From: an uncultured bacterium
Lineage (GTDB): Bacteria; Fermentibacterota; Fermentibacteria; Fermentibacterales; JCC-6
Assembly (NCBI GenBank): GCA_965371785.1
Contig: CBDUZS010000002.1
Location: 2,362 to 66,361, forward strand
Direction: 5' to 3'
DNA: 64,000 nt
Below are positions 37,891 to 48,758 of this stretch, piece after piece (position 1 is the stretch's first letter; each line of letters starts with the position of its first letter). The notes under the pieces were generated by a model that did not search any database, was not told the origin of the DNA, and saw nothing but the letters and a program-made list of their open reading frames with translations. The position numbers and the translations under genes were made by a program.

Positions 37891-38079
37891 ATGTTCGGAA
37901 GAATTGGACCAGTCGAGATAATCCTGATACTGATCGTTCTCCTCCTTCTCTTCGGTGCGAAGAGAATTCCCGAGATCGCCAGATCCCTGGGAAAATCACT
38001 GAGCCAGTTCAAGAGAGGCCTCAGGGACGTCGATATAGACAAAACAGGCGACGACAACGAGGATGAGAAGGACGCGTAG
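37891..38079 (+). CDS. tatA: twin-arginine translocase subunit TatA/E
   Basis: 62 aa. MFGRIGPVEIILILIVLLLLFGAKRIPEIARSLGKSLSQFKRG is the canonical TatA TM plus amphipathic helix. Confidence 0.85.
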   Translation: MFGRIGPVEIILILIVLLLLFGAKRIPEIARSLGKSLSQFKRGLRDVDIDKTGDDNEDEKDA

Positions 38080-38682
38080 ATGGCAACCGTCAGTTTCAGT
38101 GCCAGGGAGATCGACTGCAAGATAGTCTACTGCGGTCCAGGCCTTTCCGGTAAGACGACCAACGTCCAATGGATACACAAGACGATTCCGCAAGATGCCA
38201 GAGGTAAGCTCATATCCCTTGCCGCAGGCAACGAGAGAACTCTCTTCTTTGATTTTCTTCCCATAGACACGGGTGAGATCAACGGGTTCAAGTTAAGACT
38301 TCATCTGTACAGCGTTCCGGGGCAGGCCATGTACTCCGATAGCAGAAGGCTCATACTCCAGTGCGTCGACGGTATCATTTTCGTAGCCGATTCGCAGATC
38401 GAGAGAATGGAAGCAAACCTGGACAGCCTGCGCGATCTCAAGGAGAACCTTCGCCGTCAGAAGAGAAAGGGAGTCAGCCTTATTCTTCAGGCGAACAAGA
38501 GGGATCTTCCCAATATCATTACAACCGATGAACTCATTACAACTCTCAGGCTGAACAGGATTTCCTGCGTCGAATCCGTCGCATGTGACGGCGTAGGAGT
38601 TTTCGAAACCCTCCGCAAGGTCAGTCGCATGGTGATCGGAAGGCTCCGCAGACAGTTCATGAGCTTCGAGGGAAGGGCCTGA
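38080..38682 (+). CDS. mglA: MglA-family Ras-like small GTPase
   Basis: 200 aa. REIDCKIVYCGPGLSGKTTN (P-loop). TLFFDFLP. LHLYSVPGQAMY (catalytic Gln context). FVADSQIERMEAN. NKRDLPN. Near-collinear with Myxococcus MglA. Confidence 0.85.
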   Translation: MATVSFSAREIDCKIVYCGPGLSGKTTNVQWIHKTIPQDARGKLISLAAGNERTLFFDFLPIDTGEINGFKLRLHLYSVPGQAMYSDSRRLILQCVDGIIFVADSQIERMEANLDSLRDLKENLRRQKRKGVSLILQANKRDLPNIITTDELITTLRLNRISCVESVACDGVGVFETLRKVSRMVIGRLRRQFMSFEGRA

Positions 38683-40154
38683 TGGCACAGGAACCTCTCG
38701 TAGACCTTCTCCTGGTCAGACTGGGCCGTGAAGAGGAAAAAAAGCGGGTCAGGACTCTGCTCGTAAACGGTCTCGGGATGAGCGAGACCGAAGCCGATGA
38801 AGCCGTCGAGAATTCCCCTTCAGTTCTCAGAGAAGCAATTCCGATGGTCGAAGCCCGTGATATCCAGAAAAGACTCTACCCGTTTATCGACCTCCTTCCG
38901 CGGATAGACGAAACGACTGAACCGCCTCCTCCGAAACCCGAGGAACCGGCCAGGGAGGGAATCGAGGAAGAAAAGGAAGAAGAGGCGGAAGAGGACTTCA
39001 CTTCCGGAATCGATGAAGAACATCTCGAATTCGACATCCTGGCTTCTGGACCTCCGCCTTCGGATCCGGTCAGGAATAGTGATTCCGCTTCCTCGGAATC
39101 AGACGTCGAGCAGGACCTCATCCTTACCTCTGCCAAACAGGAAATGCTTCAGATCGATAGATGCCATGTCTGTGGCAGAACACCGACCGATGGCGAAAAG
39201 CTTGCGCCCTGCAGGGCCTGCGGCTCCCTGACCTGCCGTGATTGCTTCGATCGGGCGGCCCATGTCTGCGAGAAGTGCGCTACGGACGGCAAAGTAGTCA
39301 GCCACGCTCTTGCGGGAACTCCGGAGTACATCAGCAAGCATGATCATCATCTCGATTCCGATGCTCCCGAGACCGTTCAAGAGAAAGAGAAAGCCTCGAA
39401 ATCCGGTCTGATGAAGATCCTCGTTCCCGTCTGTATCCTGCTTGCTCTGGGAGCTGCGTTCTACTTCGTTGACCCCATGAATCTCTTTGCCGGTGATGAA
39501 CGGGAAGACAGCGGCACGGTTCCTCTCGACACGACGTTTGTAGATACGACCGCAGTCGACACGGTTGCTGTAACTCCGGATACGTCCGAAGTCGTCTCTC
39601 CGGACAGTCTGCAGATCCTCCCGGACACAATCCTGGTCGTCGAGTCCGTGAATCCCCTCGGTCTGACATCACTCACGCTGCCCGACAGTCTTGTTCAGCC
39701 GGATGTGGTTTACTCCATCGAGGTCGTCGAAAGATTCTCATCGAGAGAGATCGATATGATGAACGAGGAACTCATCATCATTGCCACTCCGATCGAGCAG
39801 TACGCAGCACTGTGCAATCTGACCATAGACAGACTCACACTCGTGAGAATTGATGGATACGTTGTGCTTGCCATGTCCGTTCTCCATCCCGAGGATAACA
39901 CGAACAGGTACAAATTCCTGAACTACATTGCTGGTTTTCTGTACTCCTCGGATGTAGACCAGTTCGTTTTCTATTACAGGGAGAACAGGTTCCAGAATAC
40001 CAGCATTCTCACGTACACCAACGATATATTCGGCGAACTACGGACGGCAACCAGCCCACAGAATTTCCAGATGTTCGCAGGCAGCCAGGGGGGCACAGTC
40101 TGGGAGTCAGTCTCCGGAGAATTACAGGACACTCTGACCGAAGCCGTGCAGTAG
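38682..40154 (+). CDS. hypothetical single-pass membrane protein with cytoplasmic zinc-ribbon (2×CxxC), translationally coupled to the mglA-like gene
   Basis: 490 aa. N-terminal ~75 aa resemble the ribosomal L7/L12 C-terminal-domain fold (VRTLLVNGLGMSETEADEAVENSPSVLREAIPMVEARDIQKRL). Acidic/Pro-rich linker. CHVCGRT...CRACGSLTCRDCFDRAAHVCEKC zinc ribbon. TM helix ILVPVCILLALGAAFYFV. About 230-aa extracytoplasmic domain. ATG overlaps the mglA stop (TGATG). Confidence 0.6.
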   Translation: MAQEPLVDLLLVRLGREEEKKRVRTLLVNGLGMSETEADEAVENSPSVLREAIPMVEARDIQKRLYPFIDLLPRIDETTEPPPPKPEEPAREGIEEEKEEEAEEDFTSGIDEEHLEFDILASGPPPSDPVRNSDSASSESDVEQDLILTSAKQEMLQIDRCHVCGRTPTDGEKLAPCRACGSLTCRDCFDRAAHVCEKCATDGKVVSHALAGTPEYISKHDHHLDSDAPETVQEKEKASKSGLMKILVPVCILLALGAAFYFVDPMNLFAGDEREDSGTVPLDTTFVDTTAVDTVAVTPDTSEVVSPDSLQILPDTILVVESVNPLGLTSLTLPDSLVQPDVVYSIEVVERFSSREIDMMNEELIIIATPIEQYAALCNLTIDRLTLVRIDGYVVLAMSVLHPEDNTNRYKFLNYIAGFLYSSDVDQFVFYYRENRFQNTSILTYTNDIFGELRTATSPQNFQMFAGSQGGTVWESVSGELQDTLTEAVQ

Positions 40155-48179: not shown

Positions 48180-48758
48180 ATGCACAGATCGGGAAACGAA
48201 GTTGCCTACAAGATCGTATTCTACGGTCCGGGTCTTTCCGGAAAAACGACAAACCTCAGGGGAATCAGGGATTTCATAGCTCCGGAGAACCGCGGTCGCC
48301 TGGTCACGCTCTGCACGCGGGGTGAGAGAACCGTGTTCTTCGATTTCCTTCCGATCAACTTCGCAAACATTGCCGGAACCCGGATCAAGCTGCATCTCTA
48401 CTCCGTACCCGGCCAGGCCTACTACGCGCTCAGCCGTCGTGTGATACTCGATGGCGTCGACGGGCTCGTCTTCGTGGCCGACAGCCAGTTGGAAAGGTCC
48501 GATGCCAATCTCGACACGATGGACGATCTCGATCACAACCTGCAGTCGTACGGGCTCAGACTCCAGAGCATCCCACTTGTCCTCCAGTTCAACAAACGCG
48601 ATCTTCCGGGAATAACTGACGTCGAAACCATGAACATGGATCTCAACAGGAATGGCTGGCCAACCGTCGAATCGGTTGCACTCGGAGGTCATGGTCCCGC
48701 CGAAACCCTCAAAATCATCTCCGCTATCATGGCCAGACGTCATGTCAGCAAGGGCTGA
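48180..48758 (+). CDS. MglA-family Ras-like small GTPase, second paralog
   Basis: MHRSGNEVAYKIVFYGPGLSGKTTN. TVFFDFLP. LHLYSVPGQAYY. FVADSQLERSDAN. NKRDLPG. GGAG 5 nt upstream of ATG 48180; the track start at 48162 is also possible. Confidence 0.8.
   Translation: MHRSGNEVAYKIVFYGPGLSGKTTNLRGIRDFIAPENRGRLVTLCTRGERTVFFDFLPINFANIAGTRIKLHLYSVPGQAYYALSRRVILDGVDGLVFVADSQLERSDANLDTMDDLDHNLQSYGLRLQSIPLVLQFNKRDLPGITDVETMNMDLNRNGWPTVESVALGGHGPAETLKIISAIMARRHVSKG

Follow-up and report, generated by a model that had tools for sequence, protein, structure and literature searches.

A conserved tatA–mglA1–X cassette of Fermentibacterota encodes an MglA-type GTPase and a phylum-specific bitopic membrane protein

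MglA is the paradigm of the bacterial Ras-like polarity switch and, to our knowledge, nearly everything understood about its regulation comes from MglB and RomRX in Myxococcus. Group 1 of the MglA family is defined by an intrinsic arginine finger adjoining the G2 threonine (R53-T54 in M. xanthus), and coupling to an MglB gene within four genes was found for 390 of 449 MglAs, making it typical, not obligatory (PMC4316618). Orphans, such as SofG of M. xanthus and MglA of Bdellovibrio, account for 59 of the 449 (PMC4316618). A different kind of MglA partner is known from gliding in M. xanthus, where GltJ (AgmX) belongs to the Agl-Glt machinery. GltJ crosses the inner membrane once. On its cytosolic side are a zinc finger, a second small interaction domain and a long disordered linker, and it is the linker that binds MglA-GTP; in the periplasm, a disordered stretch is followed by a globular domain (PMC11135422). 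[quoted passage not shown]

The cassette and its GTPase

The window (the whole stretch of 64,000 nucleotides that was analyzed) derives from a member of Fermentibacterota (Hyd24-12), which are rod-shaped, diderm and without flagella according to their description. A three-gene cassette, tatA–mglA1–X (X denotes the partner), has junctions of 0 and -1 nt (Table 1). The first-pass annotation had placed tatA immediately upstream of the GTPase gene and the partner gene across the GTPase stop codon, and both placements were borne out: the mglA1 ATG directly follows the tatA TAG, and one base is common to the mglA1 TGA and the X ATG (...GGGCC TGATGGCA). A Shine-Dalgarno-like run (GAGGGAAGG) is found just 5' of the X start. 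Given these junctions, co-transcription and translational coupling of the three genes are almost certain. The tatA product exceeded the cutoffs of both Pfam TatA_B_E (E=1.6e-18; 66.1 bits, cutoff 21) and TIGR01411 (63 bits, cutoff 53.9). A scan of the window and of locus L056 with Rfam returned a single tRNA and no other RNA match.

Table 1. Positions of the genes and of the segments of X in the window
Feature	Positions	Strand	Basis
tatA, 62 aa, first cassette gene	37891..38079	+	Pfam TatA_B_E and TIGR01411
mglA1, group-1-type MglA small GTPase, 200 aa	38080..38682	+	phmmer vs PDB, motifs, tree
X, partner, 490-aa ORF	38682..40154	+	open reading frame; start overlaps mglA1 stop
X aa 1-75, cytoplasmic bL12-CTD/ClpS-fold domain (β-α-α-β-α-β)	38682..38906	+	fold match
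X aa 76-145, acidic Pro-rich disordered cytoplasmic linker, length-variable	38907..39116	+	pLDDT <50
X aa 146-205, conserved short helix (TSAxEE), then FYVE-related double zinc finger	39117..39296	+	invariant Cys/His, fold
X aa 244-263, single TM helix, N-in/C-out	39411..39470	+	hydropathy, K/R bias, AF2 helix 244-263
X aa 264-335, periplasmic Asp/Thr/Pro-rich disordered linker, loose DT repeats	39471..39686	+	pLDDT mostly <50
X aa 336-490 + stop, periplasmic α/β domain (α-β-β-α-β-β-α-α-α)	39687..40154	+	predicted model
mglA2, MglA paralog, ~192 aa, 10 kb downstream of cassette	48180..48758	+	tblastn, PDB search, tree

The sequence of MglA1 was compared to those in the PDB using phmmer. M. xanthus MglA (E=2.2e-63, ~52% identity) and T. 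thermophilus MglA (E=2.6e-61) were recovered, and residues 1-191 of MglA1 aligned to residues 1-193 of the M. xanthus protein with one 2-aa gap; the near-collinearity that had been noted, including the PGQ context (YSVPGQ), thus stands. The Pfam Arf family was also matched above its cutoff (E=2.5e-10). MglA1 is a single-domain small GTPase (200 aa, i.e. <240 aa) with a GxxxxGK[ST] P-loop (GPGLSGKTT) and an NKxD sequence (G4, NKRD). Its ERTLFFD segment pairs with DRTLFFD of M. xanthus MglA and features the intrinsic Arg finger beside the G2 Thr; this Arg and Thr were invariant across all MglA1 and MglA2 sequences. The G3 motif reads SVPGQ where group 1 has TVPGQ. In every MglA1 and MglA2 sequence from Fermentibacterota, Ser takes the place of Thr78, and the V, P, G and catalytic Q are kept. 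The C-terminal tail of MglA1 (RLRRQFxxxEGRA) is conserved, and the MglA1 sequences formed a monophyletic Fermentibacterota clade (100/100 bootstraps). With an Arg finger, the G2 Thr, the catalytic Gln and the P-loop Gly all in place, MglA1 is, as judged from these residues, a group-1 MglA whose catalytic site is intact.

The second paralog, mglA2, which the first-pass annotation had overlooked, is located after hslU and directly 5' of a gene for a polytopic GT-C-like/TPR membrane protein. Its product matched MglA in the PDB (E=7e-54), was 66% identical to the GTPase of locus L067 (tblastn) and 49% identical to MglA1, and formed a clade of its own (100/100 bootstraps). Wherever a Fermentibacterota locus extends far enough to cover its position, mglA2 was present, and this holds also for the lineage without mglA1 that is described below. 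Both paralogs are 48-54% identical to canonical MglAs, whereas the canonical proteins share ~71% identity across the phyla sampled; of these canonical MglAs, two had their neighborhoods checked, and both have an adjacent mglB. The unusual divergence of the two Fermentibacterota paralogs is consistent with a changed set of partners.

Searches for mglB were carried out using phmmer, an HMM made from four MglB sequences, and Pfam. Neither the 64-kb window nor the ±10 kb searched in the loci of ~60 relatives yielded one, so that the orthologs of this GTPase have no canonical mglB at their side within that distance, as had been supposed. In the control loci, the nearest outgroup MglAs (55-57% identity) had a Robl_LC7 gene directly adjacent.

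Architecture and conservation of X

X is a bitopic protein of the inner membrane and is specific to the phylum. The family was restricted to Fermentibacterota (57 matches among 1.84 billion representative proteins), and its two well-folded cytoplasmic modules contain 37 invariant residues according to the models and the alignment. D8, R13, E19, R59, Q62 and D70 are among the invariant positions of X. The best-conserved part is the N-terminal domain, which includes the motif LYPYIDLLPR. It superposed on the bL12 CTD (1ctf) with a target-normalised TM-score of 0.77, ~24% identity and GLGL…SAP-type motifs. The signal from PF00542 was weak: X itself scored 18.5 bits (gathering cutoff, 25.9), and 31 of 66 homologs matched at E≤0.01 (best, 1.6e-5) and none of the 66 at the gathering score. 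In a manual alignment, the bL12 residues that we take to contact translation factors (V66, I69, K70 and R73) were apparently not conserved in this domain. Residues 76-150 hold 26 D+E and 10 P per 75 aa, and most of their alignment columns are variable.

The zinc module contains eight Cys and two His (4×CxxC plus 2 His), and C161, H162, C164, C177, C180, C185, C188, H194, C196 and C199 are invariant. Its predicted fold is a FYVE/RING-type cross-brace, with the eight zinc-ligand Cys in cross-brace spacing. The Pfam FYVE model (PF01363) was matched with E=0.34 and 11.5 bits, far under its cutoff of 27.8, and the sequences most similar to the module lie within unrelated bacterial TPR/β-helix proteins. 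Assignment as a DnaJ-type zinc domain was considered and rejected (NCBIfam E=0.44 only; the CxxCxGxG pattern is not preserved).

Only the window at aa 244-263 had a mean Kyte-Doolittle hydropathy >1.5. In 66 homologs, K+R averaged 3.1 in the 15 residues upstream of the helix and 0.3 downstream; this enrichment, together with acidic residues downstream, points to an N-in/C-out topology. The periplasmic linker has 11 T, 14 D+E and 7 P per 72 aa. For the periplasmic α/β domain, no relative of solved structure was found in the fold comparison, and a profile of the whole-family alignment had no significant match among PDB sequences. X had no Pfam match to Robl_LC7 (PF03259) even at E≤1, was negative with the MglB HMM and phmmer, and gave no match to the Roadblock fold (α-β-β-α-β-β-β, located in the cytoplasm).

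Most of the architecture proposed in the first-pass annotation agrees with these results, i.e. a partner other than a Roadblock/LC7 (MglB) protein, an L7/L12-CTD-like N-terminal module (by superposition), an acidic Pro-rich linker, one TM helix (the hydrophobic window coincides with the AF2 helix) and ~230 extracytoplasmic residues (227 aa lie beyond the membrane). The 2×CxxC zinc ribbon must be replaced by the FYVE-related double finger. Of the threonine-rich VDTT repeats, the Thr/Asp-rich stretch was confirmed; the repeats are loose DT dipeptides, in 1-6 copies across the 66 homologs.

The adjacency of GTPase and partner was expected to recur in relatives, and it did: the mglA1→X spacing was ≤5 nt in 54 of 56 Fermentibacterota species representatives (range, -8 to +2 nt), while the identity of X falls to ~33% across species that keep this spacing. 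The tatA→mglA1 spacing was likewise small (median -1 nt; ≤5 nt in 45/57 species), whereas the junctions flanking the cassette had medians of 25 and 46 nt. Since the tatA–mglA1 junction is as tight as that of mglA1–X, the coupling is a property of the three-gene cassette. In a deep-branching lineage (loci L002, L056 and L067), X is conserved with no mglA1 beside it, and tatA and X are direct neighbors, 145 nt apart. The intervening spacer was considered as a possible mglA1 remnant, but it is AT-rich, non-coding and without similarity. The zinc module was about as conserved in this lineage (66.6%) as in the main clade (69.4%). X is therefore independent of MglA1.

Synteny extends over the entire 20-kb neighborhood across Fermentibacterota, and adjacency alone is thus weak evidence for a functional link. 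The tight tatA→mglA1 and mglA2→membrane-gene junctions likewise suggest that coupling may be generic in a compact genome. An effector or GAP-equivalent role had been proposed for X with gene order as its sole basis, and that proposal is weakened.

Candidate roles for X

X could plausibly serve MglA as a receptor or effector at the membrane, in a role analogous to that of Myxococcus GltJ; we advance this reading tentatively, as somewhat short of probable. X would be a membrane-anchored binding partner of the MglA-type GTPase(s). MglA1-GTP would dock on its cytoplasmic part, via the bL12-like domain, the disordered linker or the zinc module, and docking would localise MglA1 at the membrane or at a pole; alternatively, it might relay the nucleotide state of MglA1 to an envelope process by way of the periplasmic domain. 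Glycosyltransferase genes abound in the neighborhood, which suggests that this process concerns the cell surface, not motility as such. The reading is put forward because the mglA1→X spacing stays near zero in 54/56 species despite the divergence of X, because no MglB is nearby while the outgroup MglAs have an adjacent Robl_LC7, because 37 residues are invariant in the two folded modules through which the cytoplasmic part of X would contact other proteins, because the bL12 CTD binds translational GTPases, and because GltJ is a mechanistic precedent. A more specific version, in which the bL12-CTD-derived N-domain, possibly with the linker and the FYVE-related finger, is a dedicated MglA-binding module that replaces MglB as GAP/regulator or reads the GTP state, is unlikely.

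The conserved spacing can also be viewed as incidental. X may be an envelope or cell-surface biogenesis protein, e.g. one that works as a scaffold or sensor in connection with the surrounding glycosyltransferase, Tat or GT-C genes, while mglA1 would be a paralog that came to sit between tatA and X and is simply co-expressed with them. Genes for GT4, GT2, GT9 and TMEM260-like enzymes prevail in the neighborhood. X is universal in the phylum and mglA1 is not, the cytoplasmic modules of X stay conserved where mglA1 is missing, the entire region is syntenic, and the tatA→mglA1 and mglA2→GT-C junctions are tight as well; all of these features favor a mere co-expression. What such an account leaves aside is that the neighboring junctions drift between 17 and 80 nt while mglA1→X stays near zero in 54/56 species, that the two conserved, predicted protein-binding modules of X have no other obvious ligand, and that an orphan MglA with intact catalytic residues needs partners. 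On this evidence, an envelope protein with no link to MglA1 is a serious if doubtful possibility. The position of tatA, which neighbors X in all lineages and does so directly in the deep-branching one, might instead mark X as an accessory of the Tat pathway, or as a component related to its substrates, with mglA1 incidental. This is very improbable: the cassette has no tatC or tatB, X carries no twin-arginine signal (it begins with a folded domain on the cytoplasmic side, and its one TM helix is internal), and no known Tat component resembled X in Pfam, NCBIfam and PDB profile searches.

If X did act on MglA1 directly, it might do so as a GAP replacing MglB, or as another regulator of the nucleotide cycle, whose bL12-CTD-like domain engages MglA1 and stabilises the catalytic Arg and Gln, much as the stalk CTD promotes GTP hydrolysis by EF-G. 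MglA1 retains R53, T54 and Q82, i.e. it is built for activation and not locked; the mglB found beside outgroup MglAs is missing nearby; and the N-domain of X is a bL12-CTD homolog by fold and weak sequence signal. L12 is required to stimulate GTP hydrolysis by EF-G (PMC3299993). Several considerations make this role quite improbable. The mglB search spanned the window and ±10 kb, and a copy may lie elsewhere in the genome; the factor-contact residues look unconserved; the N-domain resembles ClpS equally well; and one lineage has X without mglA1. Furthermore, bL12 acts on translational GTPases via the G' domain or helix D, features that, as far as we know, are missing from Ras-like GTPases.

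Fermentibacterota constitute a whole phylum with two intact MglA paralogs and no MglB beside them, one paralog being tied firmly into a cassette with a trans-envelope protein that is specific to the phylum, and they would be a natural test case for the regulation and read-out of MglA without Roadblock partners. Binding of MglA by the bL12-like domain, if it occurs, would link a ribosomal GTPase-recruiting fold to small-GTPase signalling. Should there be a dedicated MglA-binding module, a ribosomal-stalk domain would have been exapted into a membrane protein that controls a Ras-like polarity GTPase, and a cytoplasmic GTPase switch would be wired straight to a periplasmic domain of new fold. If the proteins do not interact, less is gained, namely an envelope protein family that still awaits characterisation, from an uncultured lineage, with a periplasmic domain that is new.

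Comparison with known systems

Compared to the MglA/MglB polarity module of M. xanthus and T. thermophilus (group 1; PMC4316618), MglA1 is a clear homolog, alike in the Arg finger by the G2 Thr, xVPGQ, NKRD and a length of ~200 aa. It differs in having SVPGQ and not TVPGQ at G3 and no Roadblock/LC7 gene within four genes, and its phylum carries two paralogs at 48-54% identity to canonical MglAs. Like the orphan MglAs, MglA1 is encoded without a coupled mglB, but it keeps the P-loop Gly and catalytic residues. We know of no specific, conserved, translationally coupled downstream gene described for orphans such as SofG or Bdellovibrio MglA.

The N-domain of X has the identical β-α-α-β-α-β topology of the bL12 (L7/L12) CTD/ClpS fold; unlike bL12, X does not have the N-terminal dimerisation/L10-binding domain, its N-domain is fused to a membrane protein, and the factor-binding residues are not evidently kept. 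For the zinc module, the nearest known systems are the FYVE-related fingers of Rab effectors (rabphilin-3A, Slp4, melanophilin and RIM2) and FYVE domains. PI3P-binding FYVE domains are marked by WxxD, R(R/K)HHCR and RVC; the WxxD and RRHHCR phosphoinositide motifs are absent from X, which reads ...LAPCRACG... and HVCEKC.

X has no sequence or domain homology to GltJ, and Pfam gave no match to GYF or TonB_C in X. GltJ begins with a one-zinc ZnR and also has GYF and TonB-C domains, whereas X starts with the bL12-CTD-like domain and has a two-zinc FYVE-related finger by the membrane and a periplasmic α/β domain. The overall architectures are analogous, binding of MglA by X being putative. The idea of an MglA contacting a single-pass zinc-finger trans-envelope protein is not new, and GltJ is its precedent (PMC11135422).

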